NCBI RefSeq assembly: GCF_041915215.1
Contig: NZ_JAYSBV010000012.1
DNA length: 64,000 nucleotides
Strand: one strand, 5' to 3'
DNA from: Zoogloea sp.
Lineage (GTDB): Bacteria; Pseudomonadota; Gammaproteobacteria; Burkholderiales; Rhodocyclaceae
The position numbers and the translations under genes are program-made. The notes beneath the pieces are model-generated. The model did not search any database, was not told the DNA's origin, and saw nothing but the letters and a program-made list of their open reading frames with translations. The first letter of the stretch is position 1; each line of letters begins with the position of its first letter. Shown here in pieces: positions 11,060 to 60,887 of the stretch.

Positions 11060-11141
11060 GGCTAAGCGCAACAAAACACCTCGCCGGGCCCAGGTCCGGC
11101 ACCTCACCCCTTCCAGAAAATTTCGCCAAAATCACCCAAGC

Positions 11142-11801
11142 ATGCGCCCCTACACCCACATTCTGTTTGACCTGGACGGCACCCTGATCGACTCGGCCCC
11201 GGCCATTCTCGCCAGCTTCCGAGATGCCTTTGCCCGGGCCGGAATCAGCCCGGTGCGCAGCATCGACGACAGCATCATCGGCCCGCCCCTCACCGAGACC
11301 CTGCAACTGCTCGCCGGCAGCACCGATGCCCCCCTGATCGCCCAACTGGCCGAGCACTTCAAGGCCAGCTACGACACCGAAGGCTACAAGGCCACCAGCG
11401 CCTACCCGGGCATCACCGAGCTCCTGGCCGGCCTGAAGGGCGCCGGGCTGCACCTCTCCATCGCCACCAACAAGCGCATCCACCCCACCCGGCTGATCCT
11501 CGAACACCTGGGCTGGGCGGGCTTTTTCGATCACGTGTATGCGCTGGATCTGTTCACCCCGCGCCTGCCCCACAAGGCCGCGATGATCGAACGCCTGATG
11601 CACGACCAGCAGATCCCCGCCAGCCAGGCGGTCTACATCGGCGACCGCCCCGAAGACGGTCACTCCGCCGACGCCAACGCCCTCCCCTTCATCGCCGCCT
11701 GCTGGGGCTACGGCAGCATCAGCGAAGAAGAACGGGAAGCGGGCTGGGCGGTGTGCCGGAGCGCGGCAGAAATGCTGAAAAAACTGCAGGAAATGCGGTG
11801 A
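11142..11801 (+). CDS. HAD-superfamily phosphatase (phosphoglycolate phosphatase-like)
   Basis: Motif I FDLDGTLIDS and a C-terminal GDRPED motif. Start chosen at MRPYTHILFDLDGTL rather than the long upstream ORF extension. Confidence 0.75.
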   Translation: MRPYTHILFDLDGTLIDSAPAILASFRDAFARAGISPVRSIDDSIIGPPLTETLQLLAGSTDAPLIAQLAEHFKASYDTEGYKATSAYPGITELLAGLKGAGLHLSIATNKRIHPTRLILEHLGWAGFFDHVYALDLFTPRLPHKAAMIERLMHDQQIPASQAVYIGDRPEDGHSADANALPFIAACWGYGSISEEEREAGWAVCRSAAEMLKKLQEMR

Positions 11802-12028
11802 TCCATGCCACCTGACGGCATCAAAAACTGCACATAACACCTACAAAAATAAAAAAACGAAAACCAATCAACATTTACATTTTATGCAGTGATAAGCTCC
11901 AGAAGCCTTGCCAGCAAAAAACAAATGACAAAAGCACTTGTTACGCCCAAGGCCGTAAAAAACCCATCAATGCCAATTACAAGGCTGGCCCGTAAAACCT
12001 GGGCATATCTGGATCTGGAGATGTTGTC

Positions 12029-12796
12029 GTGAACAAATTTGCAACTTCTGGCCTGCTGCTCATGCTGGCCGGAGTGGTTGCAGGCTGTACGCCGCGCTAT
12101 GCGGACGTGCCTGCTCCAACCCGTTTTGAAAACTCAACCCAGCAAAAAATCCAGGCTGCACAACACTGGCAGAAAATCGCTGAGCACATGGCGATCCAGA
12201 TCGGCAGCGACCTCCAAGGGAAACTCAACGGGCGGGCATTGTTCATCCCGCTGCAGGAAGGAGAACAAGCCTTTGTCTCGGGCTTCCGGGAACTGCTGAT
12301 CACATCGCTGGTGCAACAAGGGGTGCCTGTCAGTACCGACAAGCGCAACGCATTGACCGTAGATGTGCGTTACTCCATCTACAAGTTCAATCCCGAGCGT
12401 TCGGCCAATACCTACAAGTACGGCCAAATCACCGCCCTCACAGCCGGACTCTGGAGCGCAGGCGGAATCATTGGGGCGATTGTGGATAGCAGCAGCTCTG
12501 CAGGCGCGACAGCCGCCGCGAGCGTGCTTGCCGTGGGTGCCGCAGAAACCCTGGGATGGGCGCTTAATGAGGCCGGTGAAGCCGGTAAACACGCACCTGG
12601 ATCAGTCCCGCGCTCAGAGATCGTGCTGACGCTCTCCATCAGCGATCAATCACAGATCATCGCCCGCCGCACCCAGATTTATTACGCGACGGACACCGAT
12701 CAGGATCTGTACTGGAAGCGCAGCACCAGCAACGGCTACACCCTCCCGGTGGTAGGCAGTTCCTGTAGCGAAGGAGGTGGCTCATGCGCACGCTAA
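12029..12796 (+). CDS. hypothetical lipoprotein (GTG start)
   Basis: Lipobox LAGVVAGC. Preceded by a roughly 230-nt AT-rich intergenic region. Gene GC is visibly lower than its surroundings. Confidence 0.5.
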   Translation: MNKFATSGLLLMLAGVVAGCTPRYADVPAPTRFENSTQQKIQAAQHWQKIAEHMAIQIGSDLQGKLNGRALFIPLQEGEQAFVSGFRELLITSLVQQGVPVSTDKRNALTVDVRYSIYKFNPERSANTYKYGQITALTAGLWSAGGIIGAIVDSSSSAGATAAASVLAVGAAETLGWALNEAGEAGKHAPGSVPRSEIVLTLSISDQSQIIARRTQIYYATDTDQDLYWKRSTSNGYTLPVVGSSCSEGGGSCAR

Positions 12797-20122: not shown

Positions 20123-20893
20123 ATGAAGGCCGTGATCCTCGCGGGTGGCCTGGGCACCCGTCTTAGCGAAGAAACCGTCTCCCGCCCCAAGCCCATGGTG
20201 AACATCGGGGGGCGTCCCATCCTGTGGCACATCATGAAGATCTACTCCAGTCATGGCATCCATGACTTCGTGATCTGCTGCGGCTACATGGGCTACGTGA
20301 TCAAAGAGTATTTCGCCAACTACTTCCTGCACATGTCGGACGTCACCTTCGACATGAGCAACAACCAGATGGAAATCCACGAGCACCACGCCGAGCCGTG
20401 GCGCATCACCCTCGTGGATACCGGCGACCAGACCCAGACCGGCGGCCGCCTGGCCCGGGTGAAGCAGTACGTGAAGAACGAAGAGATGTTCTGCTTCACC
20501 TACGGCGACGGGCTGGCCGACATCGATGTGCGGGCCGAAATCGACTTCCACCGACGCCACGGCAAGCCCGCCACGGTGGCCGCCGTCCAACCCCCGGGGC
20601 GCTTCGGCTCGCTCCAGCTGGACGGGCCCGATGTGAGCGCGTTTGTCGAAAAGCCCCTGGGCGACGGCGGCTTCATCAACGGCGGCTTTTTCGTGCTCAA
20701 CCCCGGAGTGCTGGATCTGATCGACGGCGATCACAGCGTCTGGGAAGGCGACGTGCTCGCCCGCCTGATCGAACGCCACGAGCTGGCCGCCTTCCAGCAC
20801 AACGGCTTCTGGCGCCCCATGGACACCCTGCGGGACAAGTCCTACCTCGAAGAACTCTGGAACACCGGGAGCGCCCCATGGAAAACCTGGTGA
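20123..20893 (+). CDS. rfbF: glucose-1-phosphate cytidylyltransferase
   Basis: MKAVILAGGLGTRLSEET nucleotidyltransferase motif. About 256 aa. RBS AAGGAG. Confidence 0.9.
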   Translation: MKAVILAGGLGTRLSEETVSRPKPMVNIGGRPILWHIMKIYSSHGIHDFVICCGYMGYVIKEYFANYFLHMSDVTFDMSNNQMEIHEHHAEPWRITLVDTGDQTQTGGRLARVKQYVKNEEMFCFTYGDGLADIDVRAEIDFHRRHGKPATVAAVQPPGRFGSLQLDGPDVSAFVEKPLGDGGFINGGFFVLNPGVLDLIDGDHSVWEGDVLARLIERHELAAFQHNGFWRPMDTLRDKSYLEELWNTGSAPWKTW

Positions 20894-22014
20894 CGCCTCT
20901 TGTAGATCCGGGCTTCTGGGCCGGGCGGCGGGTATTTCTCACCGGCCACACCGGCTTCAAGGGCAGCTGGCTCGCCCTGTGGCTGCACCAGATGGGCGCA
21001 GAGGTGCAGGGCTATGCCCTCGCCCCGCCCAACAGCCCCAATCTGTTTGCCCTGGCGGGCATCAGCGAGCTGCTCCACAACCGGATCGGCGATCTGCGCG
21101 ACGGTGCTCACCTGCGGGCCTGCCTCACCAGCTTCGCCCCGGAAGTGGTGCTCCACCTGGGTGCCCAGGCGCTGGTGTCGGAAGGCTATGCCGACCCGGT
21201 GGGCACCTTCGCCACCAATGTCCAGGGCACCGTGAACCTGCTCGAAGCCGTGCGCTACTGCCCCAGCGTGGGTGCCGTGGTGGTGGTGAGCAGCGACAAG
21301 TGCTACGAAAACCGCGAATACACCGCCACCGACCGGGGCTATCACGAAGATGACCCCATGGGCGGCTACGACCCCTATTCGGCCAGCAAGGGCTGCACCG
21401 AACTGGTCGCCTCTGCCTACCGGCGCTCGTTTCTGCTGCAACGGGGCGTGCCCCTGGCCAGCGCCCGGGCCGGCAACGTGATCGGTGGCGGCGACTGGAG
21501 CCCTGCCCGGCTGGTGCCGGACGTGCTCGCTGCCTTCAGCGCCGGCCGCCCGGTGCTGCTGCGCAACCCGGACGGCGTGCGCCCCTGGCAGCACGTGCTC
21601 GAACCCCTGGCCGGCTACCTGGCCCTGGCCCAGCGCCTGCACCAGGAAGGCGCCCCCTGGGCCGAAGGCTGGAACTTTGGCCCCGACCCGGCGGATGCCC
21701 GGAGCGTGGGCTGGGTGGTGGAACACCTGGCCCGGGCCTGGGGCCCGGATGCCTGCTGGGACAAGGGCGATGCCCCCATCCATGAAGCTGGCACCCTGCG
21801 CCTGGATTGCCACAAGGCCCACACCCGCCTGGGCTGGCAGCCCCGCTGGGACACCGCCACCGCCCTCGACCGCAGCCTGGCCTGGTTCCGGGCCTGGCAA
21901 CAGGGCGCCGACATGCGCCAGTACAGCCGCGCCGAGATCGACGCCTACTGCGACGCTCCCGGCCTGGCCCCCACCGCCCCCACCCTCCACGGAGACACAT
22001 CATGCCCGGTCTGA
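20878..22014 (+). CDS. rfbG: CDP-glucose 4,6-dehydratase
   Basis: SDR extended family with [14 protein letters not shown] Rossmann motif. About 378 aa. Overlaps rfbF by 16 nt. Confidence 0.85.
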
Positions 22015-23369
22015 TCCGCTACGCCCTGCGCCCCGACGCGTCTGGCCAATGCCAACTGAACCTGCCCGAACTGGCCGGCCAGGATGTGGAAATCCTGGTG
22101 CGCCCGCGCCAGCCCGACAGCAGCGACACCCCCTGGCGCGCCGGGCGGGACAGCGTGCAGCCCTCGGGCAAGGTAATCGGCGAACCCGAAAAGAACGCCA
22201 TGATCGAAGCCGCCCTGGATGGCTGGCTCACCACCGGGCGCTTCAACGATGCGTTTGAGGAGCGCCTCGCCCGCTTTGTCGGGGTGCCCTACGCCCTCAC
22301 CGTGAATTCCGGCTCCTCGGCCAATCTGGTGGCCTTCACCACCCTGACCTCGCCCCAGCTGGGCGAACGGGCGATCCGCCCGGGGGATGAAGTCATCACC
22401 GTGGCCGCCGGCTTCCCGACCACCGTGTATCCCATCATCCAGAACGGGGCGATCCCGGTGTTCGTGGATGCCCGGCTGCCCGACTACAACATCGACGTGG
22501 CCATGCTGGAAGCGGCCCTCAGCCCCCGCACCAAGGCCATCATGGTGGCCCACACCCTGGGCAACCCCATTGATCTGGACACGATTTGCGCCTTTGCCCA
22601 GGCCCACAAGCTGTGGCTGATCGAAGACTGCTGCGATGCCCTCGGCTCCCGCTGGAAAGGCCGCCGGGTGGGGAGCTTCGGGGATCTGGCCACCCTGTCC
22701 TTCTACCCCGCCCACCACATCACCATGGGCGAAGGGGGCGCGGTGCTGACCGCCAACCCGGAGCTCAAGCGGATTGCCGAATCCTTCCGCGACTGGGGGC
22801 GGGACTGCTGGTGCAAGACCGGCTGCGACAACACCTGCGGCAAGCGCTTTGGCTGGCAGCAGGGCCGCCTGCCCGCCGGCTACGACCACAAATACACCTA
22901 CAGCCATGTGGGCTACAACCTCAAGATCACCGACATGCAGGCCGCCTGCGGGCTGGCCCAGCTGGATCGGCTGGAAGACTTCATCGCCGCCCGCAAGCGC
23001 AACTTCAACCACCTGAAGGCGGCCCTGGCCGATTGCACCGACTTTTTGATCCTGCCCGAAGCCACCCCGGGCAGCGATCCGGCGTGGTTCGGCTTCCCCA
23101 TCACCCTCAAGCCTGAAGCCGGGGTGAACCGGGTGGATCTGGTCCAGTACCTGGATCAGCACAAAATCGGCACCCGGCTGCTGTTTGCCGGCAACCTGAT
23201 CCGCCAGCCGGCCATGGCCGGGCGGGATTACCGGGTGATCGGCACCCTGCCGGTGGCCGACCAGATCATGCGCGACACCTTCTGGATCGGCGTGTGGCCC
23301 GGCCTCAGCCGGGAGCAGCTGGACTATGCCGTGCATCACATCAAGACCTTCCTGGGAGTCGAATTATGA
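22002..23369 (+). CDS. rfbH: CDP-6-deoxy-D-xylo-4-hexulose 3-dehydrase (E1, PMP-dependent, DegT/AHBA family)
   Basis: [10 protein letters not shown]...[12 protein letters not shown]-terminal signature of RfbH/DdhC. Start codon uncertain; the ATG at 22002 gives 455 aa and overlaps rfbG by 13 nt. Confidence 0.8.
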
Positions 23370-24862
23370 GCACCAAGCCCCTCATGGTGTTTGAAATGGC
23401 CAACAACCACATGGGCGACCTGGGCCACGGCCTGGCCACCATCCGCGCCCTGCGCGAGGCCTGCACCGGCTTCGAGGCCGATTTCGACTTCGCCTTCAAG
23501 CTCCAGTACCGGGATCTGGACACCTTCATCCACGCCTCGGTGCGCGGGCGCGAAGACGTGAAGTACGTGAAGCGCTTTGAAGAAACCCGGCTGAGCGACG
23601 CTTCCTTTCAGGAACTGGTGCGGGAAATGCGCGACAACGGCTTTCAAACCGTATGCACACCCTTCGACGAGCCCTCGGTGGACAAGATCGAAGCCCACGC
23701 CATCGAGAGCATCAAGGTCGCCAGCTGCTCCTTCACCGATTGGCCCCTGCTGGAGCGCATCGCCCAGAGCAACAAGCCGGTGATCGCCTCCACCGCCGGC
23801 GCGACGCTGGAAGAGATCGACAACGTGGTGAGCTTCTTCCTGCACCGCCACAAGCAGCTCACCCTGATGCACTGCGTGGCCGAATACCCGACCCCGGACG
23901 CCAGCCTGCAGGTGAATCAGATCGCCCTGCTCCAGGCCCGCTACCCGGACTGCCGGATCGGCTACTCCACCCACGAATCCCCCGACAACACCCTGGCGGT
24001 GGCCCTGGCCGTGGCCAAGGGCGCCCGGGTGTTCGAGAAGCATGTGGTGCTGCCCACCGCCCGCTACCCGGCCAATGCCTACTCGGCCAACCCGGCCCAG
24101 ATCCGGGCCTGGCTGGAAAGTGCGCGCCGGGCCCTGGCCATCTGCGGCAGCGCCGACCGCTACCAGCCCTCCCGCGCCGAAGAAGCCAGCCTGCACAGCC
24201 TGCGCCGGGGGGTGTTTGCCACCCGCCCCATTCCTGCCGGCACCCAGCTGACCCGGGACATGATCGAGTTTGCCTTCCCGCCGGTGGAAGGCCAGCTCAC
24301 CGCCAACGCGTGGTCCAAGTACAGCCAGTTCCGCGCCACCCAGGACATTCCTGCCGGCACCCCGGTGCTGCACATGGATCTGGCCGAAAGCCACCTGCGC
24401 AGCCAGGTGATGGGCATCGTTCAAGACGTGAAGAAGCTGCTCAAGGCCGCCCATGTGGTGATTCCGGGCAAGTCGGAACTGGAGATTTCCCACCACTTCG
24501 GGCTGGAGCGCTTTGACGACTTCGGGCTCACCATGCTCACCGTGGTGAACCGGGAATACTGCAAGAAGCTGCTGGTGCTGCTGCCGGGCCAGACCCACCC
24601 CGAGCAATACCACCTCAAGAAGGAAGAAACCTTTGTGGTGGTGCACGGCGAACTCACCCTGTGGCTCGATGGCGAAGAACGCCTGGCCCACGCCGGCGAC
24701 GTGATCACCGTGAACCGGGGCGTGCGCCACCGCTTTTACACCCGCGTGGGCGCGGTGTTCGAGGAGATTTCCTCCACCCACGAGCCCAACGACTCCTACT
24801 ACACCGACCCGGCCATTGCGCGGAACACCCAGCGCAAGACCTGGCTCACCTACTGGATGTAA
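23366..24862 (+). CDS. NeuB-family (sialic-acid-synthase-like) PEP-condensing enzyme with SAF domain, fused to a C-terminal cupin
   Basis: NeuB signatures [44 protein letters not shown] domain [17 protein letters not shown]. An extra roughly 140-aa cupin ([23 protein letters not shown]). ATGA overlap with rfbH. Confidence 0.65.
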
Positions 24863-24880
24863 GCCCGGAGACTGCCCACC

Positions 24881-26704
24881 ATGCGCCTTGCCGACTGGAT
24901 CATGCAGCGCCTCGCCGCCGAAGGGGTGCGCCACGTTTTCACCCTGCCCGGGGGCGGTGCCATGCATCTGAACGATGCCTTGGCCTGCGAAACCCAGCTT
25001 ACCCCAGTGCCCGGCCACCACGAACAGGCCTGCGCCATTGCTGCCGAGGCCTGCGGGCGCAGCGGCCCCCCGGGCTTTGGCGTGGTGCTGGTGACCACCG
25101 GGCCGGGGGCCACCAATGTGGTGACGCCCGTGGCCGGGGCGTGGATAGACTCGGTGCCCCTGCTGGTGATTTCTGGCCAGGTGAAGCGGGCCGATCTGCT
25201 CAATGGCCGTCCCCTGCGCCAGACCGGCGTGCAGGAGGTGGACATCATCAGCATGGTGCGCGGCATCACCAAATACGCGGTCACCGTCACCGACCCCCTC
25301 ACCATCCGCCAGCACCTGGAACAGGCCCTGTACCGGATGCGCCATGGCCGGCCCGGCCCGGTCTGGCTGGATATTCCGTTGGACGTGCAGGCTGCCCCCA
25401 TCGAACCCGAACAGCTCCCCGGCTGGAGCGCCCCCGAGCTGGACAGCCCCCTGCCCGGTCACACCCTGAGCGCCATTGCCGGGCTGCTCCAGAAATCCCG
25501 CCGCCCGCTGATTCTGGCGGGCCACGGGGTGCGTCTGGCCGGCGCGGCCAAGGACTTCCGGCAACTGGTGGACGCCCTCGGGATTCCCGCCGTCACCACC
25601 TGGAACGCCCTGGACCTGCTCCCCTGGGAACACCCCCTCAACCTGGGCCGCCCCGGCGTGGTGGCCGCCCGGGCCGCCAATTTTGCGGTGCAGAACTGCG
25701 ACCTGCTGATCGCCATTGGCAGCCGGCTGGACCCCATCATCACCGCCTACAACCCCAAGGGCTTTGCCCGGGAGGCACGCAAGGTGGTGGTGGATGTGGA
25801 CCCCCACGAACTGGCCCGCCTCGCCCAGCAAGACATGCCCATCGACCACGCCCTGGCCCTGGATGCGGGCGACTTCATCCGGGGGCTGGAAGTGGCCACT
25901 CGCAGCCTGAACCTGGATCAGCACGAAGCCTGGCGGGTGCGCTGCCGGGGCTGGAAGACCCGCTATCCGCTCAACGAAACCCCGCGCTTCCCCAGCGAAG
26001 GCCCCATCGGCCACGCCCATTTTGTGGCGGCCCTCTCGGAGGCGGCCCCGCCGGATACCCTCATCAGCACCGGCAGTTCGGGGCTGGCGGTGGAGTTTTT
26101 CTATGCGGGCTTCAAGAACAAGGAAGGGCAGCGCTGCTTCCTCACTTCCGGGCTCGGGGCCATGGGCTACGGCCTGCCCGCAGCGATTGGCGCCAGCCTG
26201 GGCCAGGACAAGCAAGCCTCCCTGGCGGTGGAGTCCGATGGGAGCCTGCAGCTCAACCTGCAGGAACTCGCCACCCTGGTGGCCCAACGCCTGCCGGTGT
26301 GCCTGTTCATCATGAACAACGGGGGCTATGCATCGATCCGCAACACCCAGCGCAACTACTTTGCCGGGCGCTATCTGGCGAGCGGCCCCCAATCCGGCCT
26401 GCACATGCCCGAACTGGGCCCCCTCGCCACCGCCTACGGGCTGCCCTACATGCAGATCAGCAACTGCCGAAATCTGGCCCAGCAACTGCGCGAAGCGCAA
26501 AACCTGCCCCGCCCCTGCCTGATCGACGTGCGCCTGATTCCCGATGAAACCCTCGCCCCCAAGTGCGCCGCGATTCCCCGGCCCGACGGTTCGATTGTTT
26601 CCATGCCGCTCGAAGACATGAGCCCCCTGCTGCCCCTGGAAACCCTCCAGCGGGAAATGCTGGTGCCGCTCCTGCCCGCATCGCTGGAAGCCCCCCGTTC
26701 CTGA
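24881..26704 (+). CDS. thiamine-diphosphate-dependent acetolactate-synthase-like enzyme (YerE-type sugar two-carbon branching enzyme candidate)
   Basis: ALS/TPP family architecture, 607 aa, with a GDG-like TPP region. Embedded in the CDP-sugar operon, as yerE is in the yersiniose cluster. Confidence 0.7.
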   Translation: MRLADWIMQRLAAEGVRHVFTLPGGGAMHLNDALACETQLTPVPGHHEQACAIAAEACGRSGPPGFGVVLVTTGPGATNVVTPVAGAWIDSVPLLVISGQVKRADLLNGRPLRQTGVQEVDIISMVRGITKYAVTVTDPLTIRQHLEQALYRMRHGRPGPVWLDIPLDVQAAPIEPEQLPGWSAPELDSPLPGHTLSAIAGLLQKSRRPLILAGHGVRLAGAAKDFRQLVDALGIPAVTTWNALDLLPWEHPLNLGRPGVVAARAANFAVQNCDLLIAIGSRLDPIITAYNPKGFAREARKVVVDVDPHELARLAQQDMPIDHALALDAGDFIRGLEVATRSLNLDQHEAWRVRCRGWKTRYPLNETPRFPSEGPIGHAHFVAALSEAAPPDTLISTGSSGLAVEFFYAGFKNKEGQRCFLTSGLGAMGYGLPAAIGASLGQDKQASLAVESDGSLQLNLQELATLVAQRLPVCLFIMNNGGYASIRNTQRNYFAGRYLASGPQSGLHMPELGPLATAYGLPYMQISNCRNLAQQLREAQNLPRPCLIDVRLIPDETLAPKCAAIPRPDGSIVSMPLEDMSPLLPLETLQREMLVPLLPASLEAPRS

Positions 26705-26727
26705 CTCCGACTGACTGAGGTCTGCCC

Positions 26728-27888
26728 ATGAGCCTCGCCTGCCGGCTGTGTGACCAGCCCCTGTTCCCCGACCCGCTGCTGTGCCAGCACCACATGCCCG
26801 CCGCCGCCCAGGAGCTGCCCACCGCCGCCACCCTGAGCGCCGATGGGGGGGTGAGTCTGGCCCTGCACCAGTGCAGCGCCTGCGGCGTGGTCCAGCTCAC
26901 CAACCCACCGGTGCCCTATTACCGGGACGTGATCCGCGCTGCCGGGCTCTCGGCGGAGATGCGCGCCTTCCGCCTCCAGCAGTTTGGCGCCTGGGTGGCC
27001 GGGCACGACCTCGCCGGCAAGCCGGTGCTGGAAGTGGGCTGCGGCCAGGGGGAATACCTGGCCCTGCTGCGCGAGGCCGGCGTGGATGCGTGGGGCCTGG
27101 AGCACCGGGCCGCCTCGGTGGCCCACTGCCAGACCCAGGGCCTGCAGGTCTTGCAGGGCTTCATGGAAGGCCCTGAAACCCGCTTCGCCGGGCCGGGCAT
27201 CCCGGGCCACTTCGACGGCTTTGCGATTCTCAATTTTCTGGAACACATCCCCGCCGCGCACCGAACCCTGGCCGGCATCGCCGCCCACCTGAGCCCGGGG
27301 GCCAGCGGGCTGGTGGAAGTGCCCAATTTCGACATGATCCTGAAGGCCGGGCTGTTTGCCGAGTTCATCCCGGATCATCTGCACTACTTCACCCAGGCCA
27401 CCCTCACCGGCCTGCTGGAGCGCAGCGGTTTCGAGGTGCTGGAGTGCCGGCCCGAATGGCACGATTACGTGCTCTCGGCCACGGTGCGCAAGCGCCAGCC
27501 CCTGGATCTGTCCAGCCTCAACCAGCGCCAGCACGCCCTGGCCGACGAATTCCGCCGCTTTCTGGCCGGCTTTGCGCCGGGCCGGGTGGCGATCTGGGGC
27601 GCTGGCCACCAGGCCCTGGCCCTCATCAGCCTGATGGACATCGCCCCCCACATCCGCTACGTGCTGGATTCGGCCCCCTTCAAGCAGGGGCGTTACACCC
27701 CGGCCACCCACCTGCCCATCGTGCCCCCCGAGCGGCTGGCCGAGGGCGAGGTGGATGCGGTCATCGTGCTCGCCGCCAGCTATTCGGACGAAGTGTTGCG
27801 CACCCTGCGGGCGCGCCACGGCAGCCGCTTTCGCACCGCTGCCCTGCGTGGCGAGCACCTGGTCTGCGATCCGGAGCCCCAGCCATGA
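26728..27888 (+). CDS. sugar C-methyltransferase (TylC3-like; Zn-ribbon + class I SAM MTase + C-methyltransferase C-terminal domain)
   Basis: N-terminal Cys-rich CRLCDQP...CQHH...CSACG. SAM motif VLEVGCGQGEY. C-terminal Rossmann-like VAIWGAGHQALALISL domain. Confidence 0.7.
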   Translation: MSLACRLCDQPLFPDPLLCQHHMPAAAQELPTAATLSADGGVSLALHQCSACGVVQLTNPPVPYYRDVIRAAGLSAEMRAFRLQQFGAWVAGHDLAGKPVLEVGCGQGEYLALLREAGVDAWGLEHRAASVAHCQTQGLQVLQGFMEGPETRFAGPGIPGHFDGFAILNFLEHIPAAHRTLAGIAAHLSPGASGLVEVPNFDMILKAGLFAEFIPDHLHYFTQATLTGLLERSGFEVLECRPEWHDYVLSATVRKRQPLDLSSLNQRQHALADEFRRFLAGFAPGRVAIWGAGHQALALISLMDIAPHIRYVLDSAPFKQGRYTPATHLPIVPPERLAEGEVDAVIVLAASYSDEVLRTLRARHGSRFRTAALRGEHLVCDPEPQP

Positions 27889-28442
27889 ATGCGCCACCTT
27901 CAAGCCCCGTCACCCCGGACGCCCTGGAGGCCGCCATTGCCACCCTGCAGGCCGCCGTGGGCTCGGCCCAGGCGGGGCTGCCCGAGCCGGTGTTCCAGCT
28001 GGTCAGCAGCCTGACCCCGCTCATCAATGTGGATCTGCTGATCCACGACGAACACGGTCGCTGCCTGCTCACCTGGCGCCACGATGCCTTCTACGGGCCA
28101 GGCTGGCACATTCCGGGGGGCATCATCCGCTTCAAGGAAGCCGCCGCCCAGCGCATTGCCGCCGTGGCCGACCTGGAGCTGGGCTGCTGCGTCACGTTCG
28201 CACCCCTGCCCATCGCCCTGCACGAAATCACCAACCCGAACCGGGACGTGCGCGGCCATTTCATCTCGCTGCTGTACTCCTGCCGCCTGGCCAGCCCCCC
28301 CGACCCGGGCCGGGCCTTTGATCCGGCCAGCCCCCGGGCAGGGGACTGGGCCTGGCACACGGGCAGCCCGGACAACCTGATCCACCAGCAGCACATCTAC
28401 CGCCCCTACATCGACAACCCCCTTGCCGGAGTCTGGTCATGA
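27885..28442 (+). CDS. NUDIX hydrolase, GDP-mannose mannosyl hydrolase (Gmm/NudD)-like NDP-sugar hydrolase
   Basis: Modified Nudix box GGIIRFKEAAAQRIAAVADLELG, alignable to Gmm GGRVQKDETLEAAFERLTMAELG. ATGA overlap with the methyltransferase. Confidence 0.55.
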   Translation: MNAPPSSPVTPDALEAAIATLQAAVGSAQAGLPEPVFQLVSSLTPLINVDLLIHDEHGRCLLTWRHDAFYGPGWHIPGGIIRFKEAAAQRIAAVADLELGCCVTFAPLPIALHEITNPNRDVRGHFISLLYSCRLASPPDPGRAFDPASPRAGDWAWHTGSPDNLIHQQHIYRPYIDNPLAGVWS

Positions 28443-29512
28443 GCGCGCTCGATATTCTGGTCACCACCTACAACGGCGTCGCCCACCTGGGTGACTGCCT
28501 GCAATCCCTCGTCCGGCAACGCTTCACCGACTTTCGGGTGCTGGTGATCGACAACGCCTCCAGCGACGCCACCCCCGCGCTGGTGGAAGAATGGATGGCC
28601 CGGGATGCCCGCATCCACTACCACCGCAACCCCCAGAACATCGGCCACATGCTGTCCGCCGACACGGCCTACCGGATGACCGGGGCCGAATACGTGCTCC
28701 AGATCCACGACGACGACATGCTGCACCCGGACTTCCTCAGCCAGGTGCTGGAACAGGGTCTAATGCAGCATCCGGACTGCCCCTTCGCCTACAGCCTGTT
28801 TTACCGGCTGGTGGACGGTGTCACCCTACCCGGCATCCACCAGTACCGGCCCGAGCTGCCCACCGGCGTGCATGACGTGCTGCCCGCCCTGTGCTTCACC
28901 AACTGGATCCTCCAGTCCTTCACCGTGTTCCGGCGGGCATGGTTTGATGCGGTAGGCGGCTTCCAGCGCCACATCGCCCGGCTCCACCCGGAAGACGCGG
29001 TCAAGCTGCGGGGCGGGTTTGTGGATCACTACATGTGGGCCCGGCTCGCCACCCTGGGGCCCGCCTATGTGGTGGATGAGCCCCTGGGCTATTACCGCAT
29101 CCACGCCAGCAGCCAGTTCAACCAGTCCAGCGGCAGCCGGCGCCTGATCCAGGAAGCGATCCGCACCTACGACTACATCTACGACGATCACGACCTGTTC
29201 GACGACGTGACCCGCTACCTGGTCAAGCTCAACCAGGCGGGCCGGCTGCTGACCCAGTGCGGGCTGATCAAAACCGCCGTCGACATGCTCCAGAGCCCCG
29301 ACACGGGCCCCGAACTGGCGCCCATCCGGCGTGCCTTCCTGCAGGGTCTGCACACCGGGCTGGAGCACATGGTGTTCGATTCCCCCAAGTTTCGGGAGCA
29401 CTTCCGGCTGGAAACGCCGGAAACCCTGGGCATGCTGGCCCAGATCATCCGCGACCTGCCCCCCGACACCACCCTGCGGCCCCGCAACACCCTGCGCGCC
29501 CGCATGTCCTGA
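28439..29512 (+). CDS. glycosyltransferase family 2
   Basis: ILVTTYNG...LVIDNASSD GT2 Rossmann start and a DDD motif. 4-nt overlap with the NUDIX gene. Confidence 0.75.
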   Translation: MSALDILVTTYNGVAHLGDCLQSLVRQRFTDFRVLVIDNASSDATPALVEEWMARDARIHYHRNPQNIGHMLSADTAYRMTGAEYVLQIHDDDMLHPDFLSQVLEQGLMQHPDCPFAYSLFYRLVDGVTLPGIHQYRPELPTGVHDVLPALCFTNWILQSFTVFRRAWFDAVGGFQRHIARLHPEDAVKLRGGFVDHYMWARLATLGPAYVVDEPLGYYRIHASSQFNQSSGSRRLIQEAIRTYDYIYDDHDLFDDVTRYLVKLNQAGRLLTQCGLIKTAVDMLQSPDTGPELAPIRRAFLQGLHTGLEHMVFDSPKFREHFRLETPETLGMLAQIIRDLPPDTTLRPRNTLRARMS

Positions 29513-29527
29513 GCCGCCCCCCGCGCC

Positions 29528-30568
29528 ATGTCCCCCGCCCTGCTTGCCGCCCCACTAAACCCGTTTGCCGACTGGGCCGCCCTGCGTGGCGCCCGGATCT
29601 TCATCACCGGCGGCACCGGCCTGTTCGGCCACTGGCTGCAGCCCCTGCTCTGCCGGGCCAACCAAACCCACGGACTGGGGCTGCAGCTCACGGTACTGAG
29701 CCGCGACCCGGCGCGCTTTCTGGCCGCCCATCCGGAACTGGCCGATGATACGGCGCTCAGCTTCATCGCCGGGGATGTGCGCGACTTTGCCTTCCCGGCA
29801 GGGGAATTCAGCCATGTGATCCACGGGGCGGCCACCGCCGCTGCCGCCACCTTCCACCGCCAGGAAGACGCCCTCACCAAGTTCGACACCACCTATGCCG
29901 GTACCCGCCGGGTGCTGGATTTCGTGGCCGAACGGGGTATCCCGCGCCTGCTGGTGCTGGGCTCGGGCGCTTACTACGGCCCCCTCCAGGCGGGCCACAC
30001 GGCCTACCCGGAGGACTACCCGGTCGCCCCCGAGCCCGGCAATCTGGACGTGGCCATTGGCCATGCCAAGCGGGCGGCGGAGTTCCTGTGCGCGGCCTAC
30101 GCGGCCCGCCACGGGTTTTCGTATTCGGTGGCGCGCTGCTTTTCCTTTGTCGGCCCCCATCTGCCCCTGGATCTGCACTACGCCATCGGCAACTTCATTC
30201 GCGATGCGCTGACGGCGCCCGCCATCATCGTGGGGGGCGACGGCAGCCCGATCCGCTCCTATCTGTATCTGGGCGACCTGATGGTCTGGCTGCTGACCGT
30301 GCTCACCCGGGGCGCCCCGGGGCAGGCCTACAACGTGGGCTCGGATGAAGCGATCAGCATCGGCGAACTGGCCCGGCGGGTGGGCGCGCTGTTGGCGCCC
30401 GGCAAGCCGGTACACATCCTGGGCCAGCCGAACGGGCTGCCTACCCGCAACATCTACGTGCCGGACATCCGCCGCGCCCGGGCGGAACTGGGGCTGGACG
30501 TACTCACCCCGCTGGATGATGCGATCCGCATCACCGCCCGCCATGCCGCGCCCCAAAGGCCGAATTAG
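29528..30568 (+). CDS. NAD-dependent epimerase/dehydratase (SDR) family protein, candidate NDP-4-keto-sugar reductase/epimerase
   Basis: ITGGTGLFGHWL glycine-rich NAD-binding motif. About 346 aa. Confidence 0.7.
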   Translation: MSPALLAAPLNPFADWAALRGARIFITGGTGLFGHWLQPLLCRANQTHGLGLQLTVLSRDPARFLAAHPELADDTALSFIAGDVRDFAFPAGEFSHVIHGAATAAAATFHRQEDALTKFDTTYAGTRRVLDFVAERGIPRLLVLGSGAYYGPLQAGHTAYPEDYPVAPEPGNLDVAIGHAKRAAEFLCAAYAARHGFSYSVARCFSFVGPHLPLDLHYAIGNFIRDALTAPAIIVGGDGSPIRSYLYLGDLMVWLLTVLTRGAPGQAYNVGSDEAISIGELARRVGALLAPGKPVHILGQPNGLPTRNIYVPDIRRARAELGLDVLTPLDDAIRITARHAAPQRPN

Positions 30569-30694
30569 CCCCGGCTGACCGGTCTTTTCCGGCCATGGCC
30601 CGCCCGGGCCTGGTTTCACAATGTGCTCAAAGCCGGATAAGCCAATTACCCGGCTGGCTGCTGTCATTCCCCGACAACCCAGCGAGAGCACACC

Positions 30695-31807
30695 ATGAGC
30701 ATTGCCCTAACCCCTGACGCCGGCCTCAACCCCGGCGAAGCCGCGAAACGCAACGACCTGGCGCAACGCAAGCCCTACATCGCCGCCAAGCTGGCGCGCA
30801 TCACCGAGATGGAGGAACGCGGCGAGATCAGCCCCATCATCCGGCTGGAAAAGAGCTATCTGTGCAACTTCACTTGCACCCATTGCTCTGCCGAGTACTA
30901 CATGGACCGGCACCTTAAAAAGGTTTTCCAGATCGTGGATGAGCGCCGCAAGATTGATCTGGACGACATTCGCCGGATCTCCCGCGAAGCCGACGAACTG
31001 GGCCTTGCCCGCTTCGTGATTACCGGGGGCGAGCCCCTGGTGATGAAGGACTTCGATGAGGTGGTGGCCGCCATCGACCCGGATCGCCATTACGTGATCA
31101 CCGACACCAATGGCTGGTTCCTGGATCTGGCCAAGGCCAAGCACCTGAAATCCATCGGCGTTGAAAAAGTCCAGCTCTCGCTGGACAGCATGGTGGAAGC
31201 CGATCACGACGCCTTCCGCAACAAGCCCGGCTCCTACAAGCGGGTGATGCGCGCCATCGACGCGGCCCGGGAGGCCGGCCTCAACCTGATTCTCTCCACC
31301 GTGCTGGTCAAGGGCCGGGCCAAAACCGACGAGTTCCGCCAGATGTGCGAATTCGCCAAGGCCAAGGGCATCGGGCTGTATGTGTCTTACGCCAAGCCCA
31401 CCGGCTCGTGCACCGAACACCCGGAGTTCGTGATCGAGAAGGAAGACGCCGACATCGTGCGGGAGCTGGAAAAGGAATATCCGGTATTCACCCACATGAC
31501 CCCTTCCTACGGCTCCTTCAAGGGCTGCATCACGGTGAAGGGCATCATCACCATCACCTCCACCGCCGAGGTGACGCCCTGCCCCTACATTGATTTTTCG
31601 CTCGGCAACCTGCGCGAGACGCCCCTCAAGGAAATTCTCGCCCGGGGCATGCGCAATCCCTGGCTCGGCCCCCACCGGCCCGACTGCCTGATCGGCGAAG
31701 ACCCCCAGTTCATCAAGATCCACACCGAACGCACCCAGGGCCGCACCCATCTGCCGGTGCCCTGGGGCCAGGGTTTTTCGGATCACGACAGCCTCCAGGA
31801 CGAGTGA
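30695..31807 (+). CDS. radical SAM enzyme (CX3CX2C; C-terminal Cys-containing auxiliary region)
   Basis: CNFTCTHC cluster motif. GGEPLV SAM-binding motif. C-terminal CPYID...C residues. Confidence 0.75.
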   Translation: MSIALTPDAGLNPGEAAKRNDLAQRKPYIAAKLARITEMEERGEISPIIRLEKSYLCNFTCTHCSAEYYMDRHLKKVFQIVDERRKIDLDDIRRISREADELGLARFVITGGEPLVMKDFDEVVAAIDPDRHYVITDTNGWFLDLAKAKHLKSIGVEKVQLSLDSMVEADHDAFRNKPGSYKRVMRAIDAAREAGLNLILSTVLVKGRAKTDEFRQMCEFAKAKGIGLYVSYAKPTGSCTEHPEFVIEKEDADIVRELEKEYPVFTHMTPSYGSFKGCITVKGIITITSTAEVTPCPYIDFSLGNLRETPLKEILARGMRNPWLGPHRPDCLIGEDPQFIKIHTERTQGRTHLPVPWGQGFSDHDSLQDE

Positions 31808-31876
31808 ACGCACGAGCACGCACGCTCACGCAGCCCCCCACATACACCCCACCTTCCGACCCGGGAGCCAGAGACC

Positions 31877-32683
31877 ATGTTTGCCACCGCCGACACCCTG
31901 CCCGACCTGTCCCTGTTTGATGAAAGTGGCCGCTGCCTGCCCAAGGGCCTGAACGCCCCGGCCCACGCCCGCAGCCGTCGCTACTTCCGCCTCCAGCCGC
32001 CGCGTCTGGACATGCCCAATCTGCACGCCCGGCTGCGCCAGCACCTGGGCGCCGGCCAAGGCATCAGCACCCAGGATTTCTGCACCCGGGTGGACGCCCT
32101 GCGCGCCAACCTGCAGGCAGACCCCCACCTGGCCGCCATTACCCGGGGCATCGGGATTCCCTTCATCCTGCCCCGGCTGGAGCACCCTGATGTGGGTACC
32201 GTACTGGACAAGCGCTACCTGCCGGCCATTGCCAGCGCCTTTGGCCAGCGCTTCCCGGATTACCGCTTCACCAGCCACCACACCCGCCCCCTGGCCGGGC
32301 TGTTGGGGGTACTGGAAGGCAGTCGCCACGAACGCCTGATCGAAGCCAGCCGGGAACGGGAGGTGGTGGGCCTGTACTTCCCTTGCCTCTCGGAATACTC
32401 GGTGCCCGCCGCCCTCGAACAGGTGGCCCGGCTGCCCGACAACTTTGTGCTGGCCGGCGGCTATGACACCAGTGCCGCCCTGGTGGCCTGCCCCGAGCTG
32501 CTGCTGCGCACCGACGGTTACCCGCCCCTGCTGTGGCTTTCGGCCCTGGCCGAAAACGGCAAACCCGGCATTGGCTACCACTACGAAGCCTACGGCTACA
32601 ACCTGACCTTCAACCGGCGCCCCCACCTGGGCATGGCCGCCGAGTACTGGAGCCACGGCCTGAGCGTGCTGGAAACCGTCTGA
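31877..32683 (+). CDS. hypothetical protein
   Basis: Co-directional ORF inside the island with no recognisable motif. Start uncertain. Confidence 0.35.
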   Translation: MFATADTLPDLSLFDESGRCLPKGLNAPAHARSRRYFRLQPPRLDMPNLHARLRQHLGAGQGISTQDFCTRVDALRANLQADPHLAAITRGIGIPFILPRLEHPDVGTVLDKRYLPAIASAFGQRFPDYRFTSHHTRPLAGLLGVLEGSRHERLIEASREREVVGLYFPCLSEYSVPAALEQVARLPDNFVLAGGYDTSAALVACPELLLRTDGYPPLLWLSALAENGKPGIGYHYEAYGYNLTFNRRPHLGMAAEYWSHGLSVLETV

Positions 32684-32725
32684 CCCCCTCTTCTGCACAA
32701 GACTGCAAGACCAAGGAAGGCCCCC

Positions 32726-35700
32726 ATGTCCAGCACGCTCCTGCGTCAGCTCTACGGCGCCCGCCGCCATCCCTATTACGTGATGGCCCCGGACTACCGG
32801 CGCACCTCCGCCGGCATCCGGGTCATGCACCAGCTCTGCCATGCCCTGCGCCTGAGCGGGGAGGAGGCCTGGATCGTGACCCAGCAGACCCACCCGGGCC
32901 TGGACACGCCCCTCCTGACCGATGAAATCCGCGCCGCCCACCAGAAAGCCGGCCTGGTGCCCATCGCCATTTACCCGGAAGTGGTGGGCCGCAACCCGCT
33001 CAACGGACGCGTGGTGGTGCGCTACCTGCTCAACCGCCCGGGCATGCTGGGCGAAACCCCGGCCTACGGCGCCGATGATCTGATTTACGTATACGAACCC
33101 GAGCTGGCCACCCACAGCGAGCGGGTGGATGGGGTGCTGCACATGCCCTCCATCGACACCCGGCTGTTCCATAACCGGGACAACCCGGACGAGGGCCGAC
33201 GCTCGGGATGCTGCATCTACTTTGGGCGCTACACCGGCGGCCCCCAGGAATACGCCGAACTGGCCGCCCGCTGCACCACGATCACCAGCGACTTTCCGGC
33301 CAGCCGGGAAGCACTGGCCGCCCTGCTGCGCCGCTCCGAATGGCTCTACTGCTTCGAAAACACCGCCCTGTCGATGGAAGCCCGCCTGTGCGGCTGCCCG
33401 GTGGTGATCCTGCCCGGCCCCATGTTCCGGGCCGAGAGCTTCTTTGGCCGGGAGCAGGGCTTTGAGCAAGGGGTGGCCTTCTCCGAAGAGCCCGCCGCCC
33501 TCGCCCAGGCCCGGGCCAGCGTGGGGCGCATCCCCGCCCTCTACGCCCGGCTGGAAGAAAAGTTCTGGAGCGGGCTGGACAGCCTGATCGAACAGACCCA
33601 GACCCGGGCCCAGGAAGAAGCCGCCCGCATCGGCGAAGAAGACCCGGCCCACCCCCGGAGCAGCAGCCAGGACCCGGAATACGCCACCTGGCGCGCCCGC
33701 CAGAGCCTGCAGGAAGTGGATGCCGAGGTGCTGGCCGAACGCATGGTGCAGCGCTGGACCCACCGCCCGGGCATCCACCTGATCCTCGAACTGCGCGCCG
33801 GCCAGGAGCCCCTGCTGGCCGACACCCTGGACAGCCTGGCCGCCCAGCTCTACCCCGAGTGGCTGCTGACCGTGGTGACGGTGCTGGACAAGCCCCCGGT
33901 GGCCGATGAGATTCCGAATCTCCAGTGGCTGAGCCTGCGCGACATCACCCACACCGATTACGTCATCGACGAAATGGCCAAGGCCTCCCCGGGCCAGTGG
34001 GTCGCCCGCATCGTGCCCGGCCTGACCCTGGAACCCCAGGCCCTGCAGGTGGCAGCGGATTACATCAATGCCCGCCCGGCCTGGCGCCTGATCTACACCG
34101 ACGAAGACACCCTGGAAGCAGACGGCAGCTACAGCCAACCCCTGTTCAAGCCCGATTTCAACCTGGACCTGCTGCGCGCCCAGGCCTATTTCGGCAGCCT
34201 GGTGCTGGTGGAAAAGCAGGCCCTGGTGGCCGCCGGCAGCTATGGCCCGGGCCAATACCCCTGGGCCGAAAACTATGACCTGAGCCTGCGGGTGCTGGAA
34301 CAGCAGGGCGAGGCGAGCATCGGCCACATCGACCAGATGCTCGTGCACCTGCATCGTCACAGCCCCCTCAGCCTCAACCCGGCCAGCGAAAAGGCCGCCC
34401 TGGAAGCCCATCTGGCCCGTTGCGGGCTGGAAGTGCGGGTACACGACAGCCCCCTGGCCGGCACCCGCCGGCTGGAACACCTGTGGCCCACCACGCCCCT
34501 GGTCAGCCTCATCATCCAGACCCGGGACCGGGAGGAATACCTGCGCCCCCTGCTGGACAGCCTGCGCGAACGCACCCGCTACCCGGCCTGGGAAGTGGTG
34601 CTGGTGGATAACGACAGCAGCGAGCACGACAGCCTCGCCTACCTGGCCGAGCTGCAGGCCGACCCGTTCTGGAGTGCCCGGCTGCGCGTCGTCCCCTGCC
34701 CGGGTGAGTTCAGCTACGCCCGGGGCGCCAACACCGGCGCCCGCCAGGCCCGGGGCGCCTATCTGATGTTCCTGGACAACGACATGCACATCGTTCAGGA
34801 CGAATGGCTGGACCGGCTGATGAGCCACGCCCAGCGCCCCGAGGTACTGATCGTGGGCCCGCGCCTGAGCTACCCGGAAACTGGCAAGGTACAGCAGACC
34901 GGCTGGGTGCTGGGCCTGCGGGGCAGTGCCGGCAGCCCCTGGGACAATGATCTCGAACTGGCCGCCCCCGGCTACATGGGGCGCGGGCTGTGCGATCAGA
35001 ACGTGGGCGCCATTGGCGGCTCGGCCCTGCTGATCCGCCAGACCGAATTTGCCCGGGTGGGCGGGATGGACGAGGTGAATTTCCCCCTCGCCCAAAGCGC
35101 GCTGGATCTGTGCCTGCGCGTTACCGGCGAAGGGGCCCCGGCGGGTGCCAAGATCGTCTGGACCCCCCACGCGATGCTGGTCCATTACGGCAGCGTTTCC
35201 CTCAAGGCCCGCCAGCGCAAGACCGAGGTGGCCCTGGCCGACCTGCTTGAAGCCCAGCGCGCCCACGATCAGGTGGTGGAGCGCTGGCTCCCCCGGCTGG
35301 CCCGGGACCCGGCCTATAACCGCCATCTGAGCTTGGTCAGCCCCTTCAAGCCCGAACATGTGATCCCCATGGACTGGGATCCGAACTTCCACGACCGGCC
35401 CCGCATTCTGGGCGTTCCGCTCACCGGCGGCGCTGGGGAATACCGGCTGCGCGCCCCCCTGCGCGCCCTGGCCCAACGGGGCCTGGCCCAGACCACCATC
35501 TGCGATCCACCCCGGGCCTTTACGGTGCGCATCCTGTCGCCAGTGGAAGTGGCCCGGGCCGCGCCGGACAGCCTGGTGCTGCACCAGCCCCTGGATGATG
35601 CCCAGAGCGACGCCCTCGCGGCCTACGCCCGCTTCGTCCCTGAGGTGAAGCGCATCGTGACCATGGATGACCTGATCACCGCCCTGCCCAAGAAGAACTG

Positions 35701-36417: not shown

Positions 36418-36446
36418 AAAACCCGGCCTGTTGCGCCGGGTTTTTG
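36418..36446 (+). terminator. Rho-independent terminator (CCCGGC-loop-GCCGGG + TTTTT)
   Basis: Readable hairpin and T-run immediately after the large GT gene. Confidence 0.6.
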
Positions 36447-36681: not shown

Positions 36682-37506
36682 ATGGCTGCCACGATCAACA
36701 CCAATTCCATGTCGCTCAACGCACAGCGGAATCTGTCTTCCTCGGCCGGTATCATGGCCAAGTCGGTCCAACGCCTGTCTTCGGGCCTGCGGATCAACGG
36801 CGCATCCGATGATGCAGCCGGCCTGGCGATTGCCGACAAGATGAACTCCCAGGCCAAGGGTTTTGACGTGGCCATCCGCAATGCCAACGACGGCATCTCC
36901 ATGGCCCAGACCGCAGAAAGCGCGATGCAGGCCGTGACCGACAACCTCCAGCGGATGCGCGAACTGGCGGTCCAGTCGGCCAACGGTACCTACACCAGCG
37001 GTGACCAGGCCAACATGGATACGGAATTCCAGCAGCTGCAATCGGAAATCCAGCGGGTTGTGGGGGGCACCACCTTCAACGGTCAGAACGTGCTGAACCT
37101 CAGCTCCAACGTGAATTTCCAGGTGGGTGCCGGTACTGCCACCACGGACACCATCACGGTGCAAAGCAGCGCAGTGACCCTGTCCGGGGTGTCCGCCGCC
37201 GTGACCGGCAGCATCAGCGCCGCCTCGGCTGCCACCGCCGCGATTGCCAACATCGACACCCAGATCAACAACCTGAACACTGCCCGCGCCACGTGGGGCG
37301 CCGTGCAGAACCGGTTCTCCTCGGTGGTCCAGACCCTGCAGGTGGCTTCGGAAAACGCCAAGTCCTCCCGTGGCCGGATCATGGATGCAGACTTCGCCCA
37401 GGAAACCTCCAACATGACCCGCGGCCAGATCCTGCAACAGGCCGGTACCGCGATGGTGGCCCAGGCCAACAGCGCCCCCAACAACGTGCTGTCCCTGCTC
37501 CGCTAA
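36682..37506 (+). CDS. fliC: flagellin (short, 274 aa)
   Basis: Conserved flagellin N-terminus ([16 protein letters not shown]...[20 protein letters not shown]) and C-terminus ([26 protein letters not shown]). RBS AAGGAG. Confidence 0.9.
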
Positions 37507-60875: not shown

Positions 60876-60887
60876 ATAGCATGCGGG

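Follow-up and report, generated by a model that had tools for sequence, protein, structure and literature searches.

Acyl-branched deoxysugars have been brought together in the "unifying scheme" of Steitz et al. 2022, in which YerE-like enzymes join alpha-keto acids to cytidine diphosphate (CDP)-4-keto-3,6-dideoxy-D-glucose; the donors are hydroxylated C4-C8 alpha-keto acids from a cluster-encoded aldolase, and a reductase acts after ligation (PMC9306805). Erwiniose (ErwE with ErwI/ErwJ) falls under this scheme, as do caryophyllose (MMAR_2332 with the HpcH-type aldolase MMAR_2331) and the gastriose of Mycobacterium gastri, which carries a C7 branch (MyGE, the "aldolase MygI", and the reductase MygF) (PMC9306805). 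In vitro, ErwE, MMAR_2332, and MyGE accept C4-C8 hydroxylated alpha-keto acids, while the aldolases and the real nucleotide-sugar acceptor are untested for the mycobacterial enzymes (PMC9306805). Here we describe a gene cluster of Zoogloea sp. that belongs to this YerE-type pathway class. It lies in a window of 64,000 nucleotides, the whole stretch of DNA that was analysed (contig NZ_JAYSBV010000012.1, assembly GCF_041915215.1), and its central gene (23366-24862, + strand) encodes a NeuB-family synthase fused to a C-terminal cupin, followed by a gene for a YerE-like thiamine diphosphate (ThDP)-dependent carboligase. A phosphoenolpyruvate (PEP)-dependent fusion of NeuB and isomerase as the donor-forming enzyme appears to be undescribed in the searchable literature, as do the spread of the fusion over many phyla and its placement in a putative flagellin glycosylation island. 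A literature search on NeuB, cupin, CDP, and flagellin returned nothing specific, and the SugarBase preprint, checked for CDP-linked branched sugars, held nothing relevant.

The gastriose cluster of M. gastri contains an orthologous adjacent pair: a NeuB-cupin protein 57% identical to that of Zoogloea is encoded directly upstream of, and on the same strand as, a ThDP enzyme 56% identical to its counterpart. The order of this locus (L070) is polyketide synthase (PKS), methyltransferase, GtrA, CDP-glucose 4,6-dehydratase, CDP-6-deoxy-4-hexulose 3-dehydrase (E1), cytidylyltransferase, family 2 glycosyltransferase (GT2), NeuB-cupin, ThDP enzyme, HAD phosphatase, two methyltransferases, and short-chain dehydrogenase/reductase (SDR). 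The CDP-glucose and E1 genes, SDR (31% identical between the two), methyltransferases, and GT2 are thus common to both clusters, and the proposed logic would be the same, a keto acid being ligated by the ThDP enzyme to CDP-4-keto-3,6-dideoxyglucose. Since L070 has no other aldolase-type gene within 10 kb, we deduce that MygI is the NeuB-cupin orthologue; if MygI is of this family, the assignment had already been proposed. The two clusters differ in what they serve, lipooligosaccharide in M. gastri (PKS, GtrA, and GT87 neighbours) and apparently a flagellin island in Zoogloea, and in their accessory genes, with HAD and FkbM-type methyltransferases in the former and NUDIX, a C-methyltransferase-type enzyme, a radical S-adenosylmethionine (SAM) enzyme, and the latter's partner in the window. 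They also differ in the ThDP motif, which reads GDG in M. gastri and SDG in the window. The erwiniose/JanthE-type and caryophyllose-type clusters have the same backbone of cytidylyltransferase, dehydratase, E1, ThDP enzyme, and SDR together with a cluster-encoded keto-acid maker, either a DmpG/BphI-type aldolase with an acetaldehyde dehydrogenase or the HpcH-type MMAR_2331. Unlike those pyruvate aldolases, the putative donor maker of the window is a PEP-dependent NeuB-type synthase fused to a predicted isomerase, a design that should give a polyhydroxylated branch, derived from a sugar and longer than in aldolase-type clusters.

The fusion is real and widely conserved. The gene encodes 498 amino acids between the ATG at 23366 and the TAA at 24860-24862; the ATG overlaps the stop codon of the upstream rfbH (TTATGA) and has GGGAG 8 nt before it. 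Pfam places NeuB at amino acids 44-263 (E 1e-43), SAF at 281-335 (3e-8), and Cupin_2 at 403-458 (1e-12), in agreement with the original prediction, which had read a complete NeuB core, a SAF domain, and an extra cupin and whose quoted motifs are all in the translation. The NeuB-like TIM barrel and SAF part (amino acids 1-345; 23366-24400, + strand) is a predicted synthase condensing PEP with an aldose, and the cupin part (amino acids 345-498; 24398-24862, + strand) is a domain of the D-lyxose/D-mannose isomerase type. The 120 top-ranking database homologues come from Rhodocyclaceae, Chromobacterium, Gemmatimonadaceae, and others; they are 482-518 amino acids long, and each of them has both NeuB and Cupin_2 Pfam matches. 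By tblastn, relatives of the fusion were confirmed in 364 of 185,579 species genomes, reaching Mycobacterium, Planctomycetes, Acidobacteria, Chloroflexi, and one archaeal metagenome-assembled genome (MAG). Among the 80 loci that we fetched out of these 364 genomes (L001-L080), fusion identity is 53-79%, and nearly all alignments span from residue 1-6 to residue 497-498. Mean column conservation is 0.72 in the cupin and 0.71 in the NeuB part. A search with the cupin alone, in a library holding 1.84 billion representatives, gave the same fusion or its fragments for 118 of its 150 best relatives. A sequencing frameshift that made the cupin out of a separate open reading frame (ORF), a doubt raised with the original prediction, is ruled out, as is mis-assembly, by the conserved architecture and the strength of purifying selection on the cupin; nor were any homologues of the fusion found inside canonical pseudaminic or legionaminic acid clusters.

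The synthase half looks active yet re-targeted, judging from its residues. It scores 147.1 bits against the NCBIfam equivalog for NeuB (TIGR03569; cutoff 399.65) and 137.7 bits against that for PseI (TIGR03586; cutoff 340.25), and by that standard it belongs to the superfamily as a divergent member and does not qualify as a sialic or pseudaminic acid synthase. It has the TIM barrel and SAF fold in common with the NeuB, PseI, and LegI synthases (Foldseek ~1e-21, TM 0.70-0.75 on target), at ~22-26% identity. In a profile alignment to NmNeuB, H203, H226, E10, E224, K117, S120, S142, and S201 (NmNeuB H215, H236, E25, E234, K129, S132, S154, and S213) are retained, invariant or nearly so; these include the metal-binding His pair (H215/H236) and the PEP-binding Lys and Ser residues. 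Other positions have changed. Arg314 of NmNeuB, in the RPG motif of the SAF domain, is replaced by an invariant Phe304 (FAFPP), as alignments to NmNeuB and, independently, to Bacillus subtilis SpsE both show; this Arg binds the acetamido group of the substrate. Further substrate-reading positions of NmNeuB differ as well (E134 to S122, N184 to A172, and D247 to N237). The fusion is set apart from the NeuB, PseI, and LegI synthases also by its extra isomerase-type domain, by a context free of NeuA, NeuC, Pse, or Leg genes, and by the predicted use of its product as a carbon donor that is not CMP-activated (CMP, cytidine monophosphate). More distantly, this half is structurally related to KDO8P and DAHP synthases. 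The window protein matches PDB entry 3G8R at 65-70% identity (TM 0.92), annotated as "probable spore coat polysaccharide biosynthesis protein E" of Chromobacterium violaceum. This structural-genomics construct of the same family, with no assigned function, is 99% identical to residues 2-340 of a 495-amino-acid C. violaceum fusion, so that a crystal structure of the synthase half already exists, minus the cupin, which the construct excluded.

The cupin half is a barrel with the N-terminal helices of the D-lyxose/D-mannose isomerase family. AlphaFold models have a predicted local distance difference test score (pLDDT) of 91 both for the full-length fusion and for the cupin domain alone, and D-lyxose isomerases are the closest structures: against D-lyxose isomerase 2Y0O the sequence search gives E 2.8e-9, the profile 8e-13, and Foldseek 4.5e-11. 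Every one of its top structural neighbours isomerises free sugars between aldose and ketose, and as a group they stand clearly apart from other cupins. For reference we used the Thermofilum enzyme TsLI, in which Mn is bound by H75, H77, E88, and H143 and in which K86, E156, and D163 are essential (PMC8378251). Five of these seven catalytic positions (TsLI H77, K86, E88, H143, and E156) correspond to invariant residues of the fusion (H416, K419, E421, H455, and E467). From these sequence and structure matches, the fused cupin is predicted to be an aldose-ketose isomerase-type domain that can supply an aldose.

Across the 80 loci, in which homologues of the window genes were sought by tblastn and all ORFs were also clustered de novo, the most constant companion of the fusion is the ThDP gene. 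In 75 loci it follows the fusion on the same strand, and four of the remaining five stop at a contig end within 1 kb. The gap between the two genes is 18 nt in the window and 17 nt in the median, with 61 gaps below 60 nt. E1 (rfbH) occurs in 72/80 loci, CDP-glucose 4,6-dehydratase in 65/80, and cytidylyltransferase in 63/80; a methyltransferase family defined by the de novo clustering is present in 54, usually directly after the ThDP gene, and relatives of the SDR in 53. NUDIX genes are found in 30/80 loci and HAD phosphatase genes in 21/80, both together in seven and neither in 36. No CMP-sugar or CMP-nonulosonate synthetase and no hexosamine-forming enzyme is among the gene families present in at least seven of the 80 loci. 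In 12 phylogenetically distant loci (L052, L055, L056, L059, L060, L062, L071, L072, L073, L074 at 11485-12075, L078, and L080) an ORF of ~196 amino acids stands between the fusion and the ThDP gene; it has no Pfam match and no PDB sequence match. In two loci, L007 (8699-11651) and L009 (11706-15037), a second E1 precedes genes for a ThDP enzyme with the GDG motif and for a stand-alone NeuB-like protein. This cupin-less paralogue, 345-356 amino acids long and 30% identical to the fusion, beside a second pair of E1 and ThDP genes is an independent second example of the linkage, and these two organisms may make two different branched sugars.

Judging from its sequence, the ThDP enzyme of the window (24881-26704, + strand) is YerE-like. 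It has three TPP_enzyme Pfam domains, falls under all acetolactate synthase cutoffs of NCBIfam, and finds its best PDB match in JanthE, 8RPH (2e-111, 377 bits); the match to PpYerE, 5AHK (1e-72, 249 bits), is no better than that to plant acetolactate synthase. Its ThDP-binding motif, SDGSLQLNLQEL (amino acids 452-463), has SDG where GDG is canonical. The motif is detectable in 67 ThDP copies of the 80 loci, two of them the second copies adjoining the cupin-less NeuB paralogue, and reads SDG in 43 and GDG in 24, the mycobacterial copies being GDG; in JanthE it is CDG, reported as "uncommon". JanthE is a YerE-like enzyme of Janthinobacterium sp. HH01 whose physiological substrates are stated as unknown (PMC12188165). 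Its sequence, rebuilt from the alignment, led us to the exact protein and to its locus (L081, 6805-17306), which consists of cytidylyltransferase, dehydratase, E1, JanthE, SDR, acetaldehyde dehydrogenase, a DmpG/BphI-type aldolase, another SDR, and GT2. There is no NeuB-cupin gene beside JanthE; the aldolase pair stands there instead, which supports a shared keto-acid slot that is filled in the window by the NeuB-cupin fusion. The locus is an erwiniose-type cluster and suggests for JanthE itself a 4-hydroxy-2-oxovalerate-type donor and a CDP-4-keto-3,6-dideoxyhexose acceptor.

We lean towards the fusion having two activities that together supply the side-chain donor for a long 3,6-dideoxyhexose branched at C4, in a pathway whose catalytic steps, like the identity of the aldose, we infer. 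The cupin would first turn a free ketose into the matching aldose, for which the fold family offers D-xylulose to D-lyxose or D-fructose to D-mannose as candidates. The NeuB-type domain would then join the aldose and PEP to a free, non-aminated 3-deoxy-2-ulosonic acid of eight or nine carbons. Without CMP activation, this acid would be decarboxylated by the YerE-like ThDP enzyme, and the resulting acyl-anion equivalent would be added to the C4 keto group of CDP-4-keto-3,6-dideoxy-D-glucose supplied by RfbF, RfbG, and RfbH. Finally, the SDR would reduce the new side-chain (C1') ketone, the methyltransferase and radical SAM enzyme would tailor the sugar, and GT2 enzymes would transfer it, here probably to flagellin. 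The carbon count fits, as a pentose (C5) and PEP (C3) less CO2 give C7, the length of the gastriose branch. NeuB chemistry, which leads to a 2-keto-3-deoxy-4-hydroxy acid, fits the 1'-oxy-2'-deoxy-3'-oxy pattern of the branched sugars. The methoxy positions behind this oxygenation pattern of gastriose and caryophyllose were reportedly described by Gilleron in 1993, and the two extra methyltransferases of L070 agree with them. No CMP-transferase is needed in such a pathway, which matches its absence. A more specific version of this proposal, that the NeuB product is solely an acyl-anion donor for the ThDP lyase, not a glycan monomer, and ends up in a 13-14-carbon C4-branched dideoxysugar on the flagellin of Rhodocyclaceae and Chromobacterium and in some mycobacterial lipooligosaccharide, has in our view about even chances.

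Several points weigh against the proposed pathway. Assays of enzymes of the NeuB-cupin family were not found in the searchable literature, and the equation of MygI with the NeuB-cupin gene is deduced from the locus, not documented. An E3 (AscD/DdhD-type) reductase for the 3-deoxygenation by E1 is not encoded in the window cluster, is absent as a conserved neighbour in the 80 loci, and is absent in the JanthE locus. Several loci (e.g., L024 and L059) show no E1 copy, so that the acceptor can differ there. The pathway assigns no firm role to the NUDIX and HAD genes, which are not universal; they may help to supply free sugar in some lineages, and some HAD genes of Rhodocyclaceae may merely flank the island. 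MyGE took no ketones in vitro under the conditions tested (PMC12247030). Within the cupin, isomerase activity is, from its residues, not assured: the first metal ligand is an invariant Gln414, not His (TsLI H75), and the equivalent of TsLI D163 is ambiguous, the aligned residue being P474 with an invariant D476 two residues on. This cupin differs from those of the D-lyxose/D-mannose isomerase type also in being fused to a synthase.

These cupin residues leave room for a pathway as proposed whose cupin is no ketose-aldose isomerase and acts instead as a regulatory sugar- or metal-binding module, as an epimerase of the aldose or the ulosonic acid, or as an enzyme of the CDP-ketosugar. We consider this rather unlikely, since all the top structural neighbours are free-sugar aldose-ketose isomerases and five of the seven catalytic positions are invariant. 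The pattern Gln-x-His...Glu...His is, moreover, the one by which type I phosphomannose isomerase binds its zinc.

It is also conceivable that the fusion makes a Kdo- or Kdn-like glycan constituent with the cytidylyltransferase encoded elsewhere, and that its gene is linked to that of the ThDP enzyme because both contribute to one glycan without forming one pathway. The products of NeuB-family enzymes are normally glycan monomers, and the order of events attributed to cupin and NeuB, making an aldose and condensing it, is known from KdsD and KdsA: in the Kdo pathway (KdsD-KdsA-KdsC) a ketose is likewise turned into an aldose and then condensed with PEP to a 3-deoxy-ulosonic acid, and the likeness extends to the HAD phosphatase that is near the fusion in some loci. 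The Kdo enzymes, however, are from other protein families, their substrates are phosphorylated, and their product is CMP-activated and incorporated as such. What makes this alternative improbable is the ThDP spacing, which from Mycobacterium to Planctomycetes and the archaeal MAG is far tighter than that of any glycosyltransferase, and the occupation of the same slot in sister clusters by pyruvate aldolases with non-sugar products (JanthE locus; PMC9306805).

The original prediction had made the flanking CDP-sugar genes the only plausible source of the aldose for NeuB, by way of the NUDIX hydrolase: the 3,6-dideoxyhexose would be freed from CDP and condensed with PEP to a novel deoxy-nonulosonic acid, a glycan residue. 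Its observation that the cluster lacks genes for PseB, PseC, PseH, and PseG, for a CMP-nonulosonate cytidylyltransferase (NeuA), and for a UDP-GlcNAc 2-epimerase (NeuC type) holds in our scans of 20123-36394, with Pfam on every ORF and NCBIfam on ten ORFs, from rfbF to a 291-amino-acid ORF. A Pfam scan of the likely genes outside the cluster, with the stretches at 41.7-42.6, 45.8-47.3, 48.4-50.2, and 56.2-57.5 kb lying outside that scan, likewise showed no canonical nonulosonate pathway. A functional tie between the fusion and the CDP-sugar genes is borne out, too, by the frequencies of E1, dehydratase, and cytidylyltransferase given above, and for the NUDIX enzyme it can be said that it is part of the operon, that it is translationally coupled (ATGA overlaps at 27885 and 28439), that it weakly resembles GDP-mannose mannosyl hydrolase, a releaser of free sugar, and that it accompanies the fusion in 30 loci. 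The role assigned to these genes does not hold up in the same way. The NUDIX gene is missing from 50 of the 80 loci, whereas the ThDP gene follows the fusion in 75; no CMP-activating enzyme that would use a nonulosonate product is among the families in at least seven loci; and the near-invariant ThDP partner and the isomerase-type cupin, which could itself supply the aldose, would be left without a role. Building a CDP-activated sugar merely to hydrolyse it would also be wasteful. We therefore regard this route as very doubtful and take the CDP-ketosugar to receive the NeuB product instead of giving rise to it. That NeuB acts on the nucleotide sugar itself, PEP attacking the C4 ketone to give a pyruvyl-methyl branch that the ThDP enzyme decarboxylates and extends onto an aldehyde, would account for the tight linkage of NeuB, ThDP, and E1 genes and for the loss of the Arg that reads the N-acetyl group, yet is most improbable, as its predicted chain (C1' CH2, C2' oxygenated) mismatches the 1-oxy-2-deoxy-3-oxy pattern of gastriose and caryophyllose (Scheme 1, PMC9306805, and, reportedly, Gilleron 1993), NeuB-family enzymes are known to attack open-chain sugar aldehydes, not ring ketones, and the isomerase domain would have no role.

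If the pathway is as we propose, it bears on annotation, on biocatalysis, and on flagellin chemistry. Proteins of this kind are currently annotated as "N-acetylneuraminate synthase family" or "spore coat protein SpsE", names from which one would expect surface sugars resembling sialic acid in hundreds of species, where this gene almost certainly does not produce them. YerE-like ThDP enzymes are being developed for the biocatalytic synthesis of tertiary alcohols, with few of their physiological donors known; given the NeuB-isomerase partner, C8/C9 ulosonic acids derived from sugars may be the donors of a whole YerE-like subclass, many members of which have the unusual SDG motif. A very large, unusual sugar is predicted on the flagellin of Zoogloea- and Thauera-type bacteria and of Chromobacterium, with a calculated residue mass of ~324 Da if derived from a pentose and 354 Da if derived from a hexose, plus 14 Da per methyl group. 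Such a sugar would link flagellin to mycobacterial lipooligosaccharide antigens, and the mass-spectrometric prediction is directly testable. If true, this would be the first long-branched sugar on flagellin and would give many orphan YerE-like enzymes a class of physiological donor.

In the window, the cluster (20123-36394) is a tightly packed operon on the + strand with several ATGA overlaps of start and stop codons. It opens with rfbF for glucose-1-phosphate cytidylyltransferase (20123-20893; ATG after AAGGAG; TIGR02623 461.7 bits, cutoff 300), rfbG for CDP-glucose 4,6-dehydratase (20890-22014, start approximate; TIGR02622 449 bits, cutoff 278), and rfbH/ddhC for E1 (22002-23369; NF011936 RfbH 720 bits, cutoff 423), the joint product of which is established to be CDP-4-keto-3,6-dideoxy-D-glucose (PMC9306805). 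Examined for sigma-28 and sigma-70 promoters, the stretch upstream of rfbF shows only a -10-like element, GCCGATAT, without a properly spaced -35; nothing there matched sigma-70. After the fusion and the ThDP gene come, all on the + strand, a SAM methyltransferase with a sugar C-methyltransferase C-terminal domain (26728-27888; Pfam Methyltransf_23 and Methyltransf_14), the NUDIX hydrolase, distantly like GDP-mannose mannosyl hydrolase (27885-28442; Pfam NUDIX 1.6e-5; NF011963 26 bits, under cutoff), a GT2 glycosyltransferase (28439-29512; Pfam Glycos_transf_2), and an SDR of the epimerase/dehydratase family (29528-30568; Pfam Epimerase), a candidate for a YerF-like side-chain ketoreductase. 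They are followed by a radical SAM/SPASM enzyme (30695-31807; Pfam Radical_SAM and SPASM), a conserved protein accompanying it (31877-32683; no Pfam or NCBIfam match), and a GT2-containing protein of ~1220 amino acids, a candidate flagellin glycosyltransferase (32726-36394; Pfam GT2 at amino acids 608-733). Relatives of the radical SAM gene were found by tblastn in 24/80 loci and those of its partner in 18/80; both occur in 17/80, adjacent in most.

A terminator-like hairpin (36425-36442) with a T run follows the ~1220-amino-acid GT2 gene, and ~240 nt beyond this operon end lies fliC for flagellin (36682-37506, + strand; Pfam Flagellin_N/C), the probable acceptor protein, with fliD, fliS, and fliK after it (Pfam FliD, FliS, and Flg_hook). 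In a Rhodoferax locus (L006), fliC is also within 10 kb of the fusion. The layout is that of a flagellin glycosylation island, and from the contiguity of the genes we infer that flagellin is the acceptor.

Upstream of the island, ~8 kb of lower-GC DNA lies between a HAD_2 phosphatase gene (10929-11801) and rfbF. Encoded in this stretch (to 20096) are an unidentified ORF, FlgO, an AraC regulator, an amino-acid permease, EutB/EutC, and a Gcw_chp protein, and it has the look of DNA inserted between the phosphatase gene and the island; in Zoogloea loci (L001, L012, and L013) a HAD gene precedes rfbF without any other clustered gene in the interval. Farther downstream, genes of the Calvin cycle and glycolysis (phosphoribulokinase, transketolase, GAPDH, and PGK) are found at 47.3-56.2 kb. 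At 58959-63751, where no rtcA was noticed nearby, rtcR for a sigma-54 activator (minus strand) stands beside an SPFH/Band_7 gene and rtcB for an RNA ligase.

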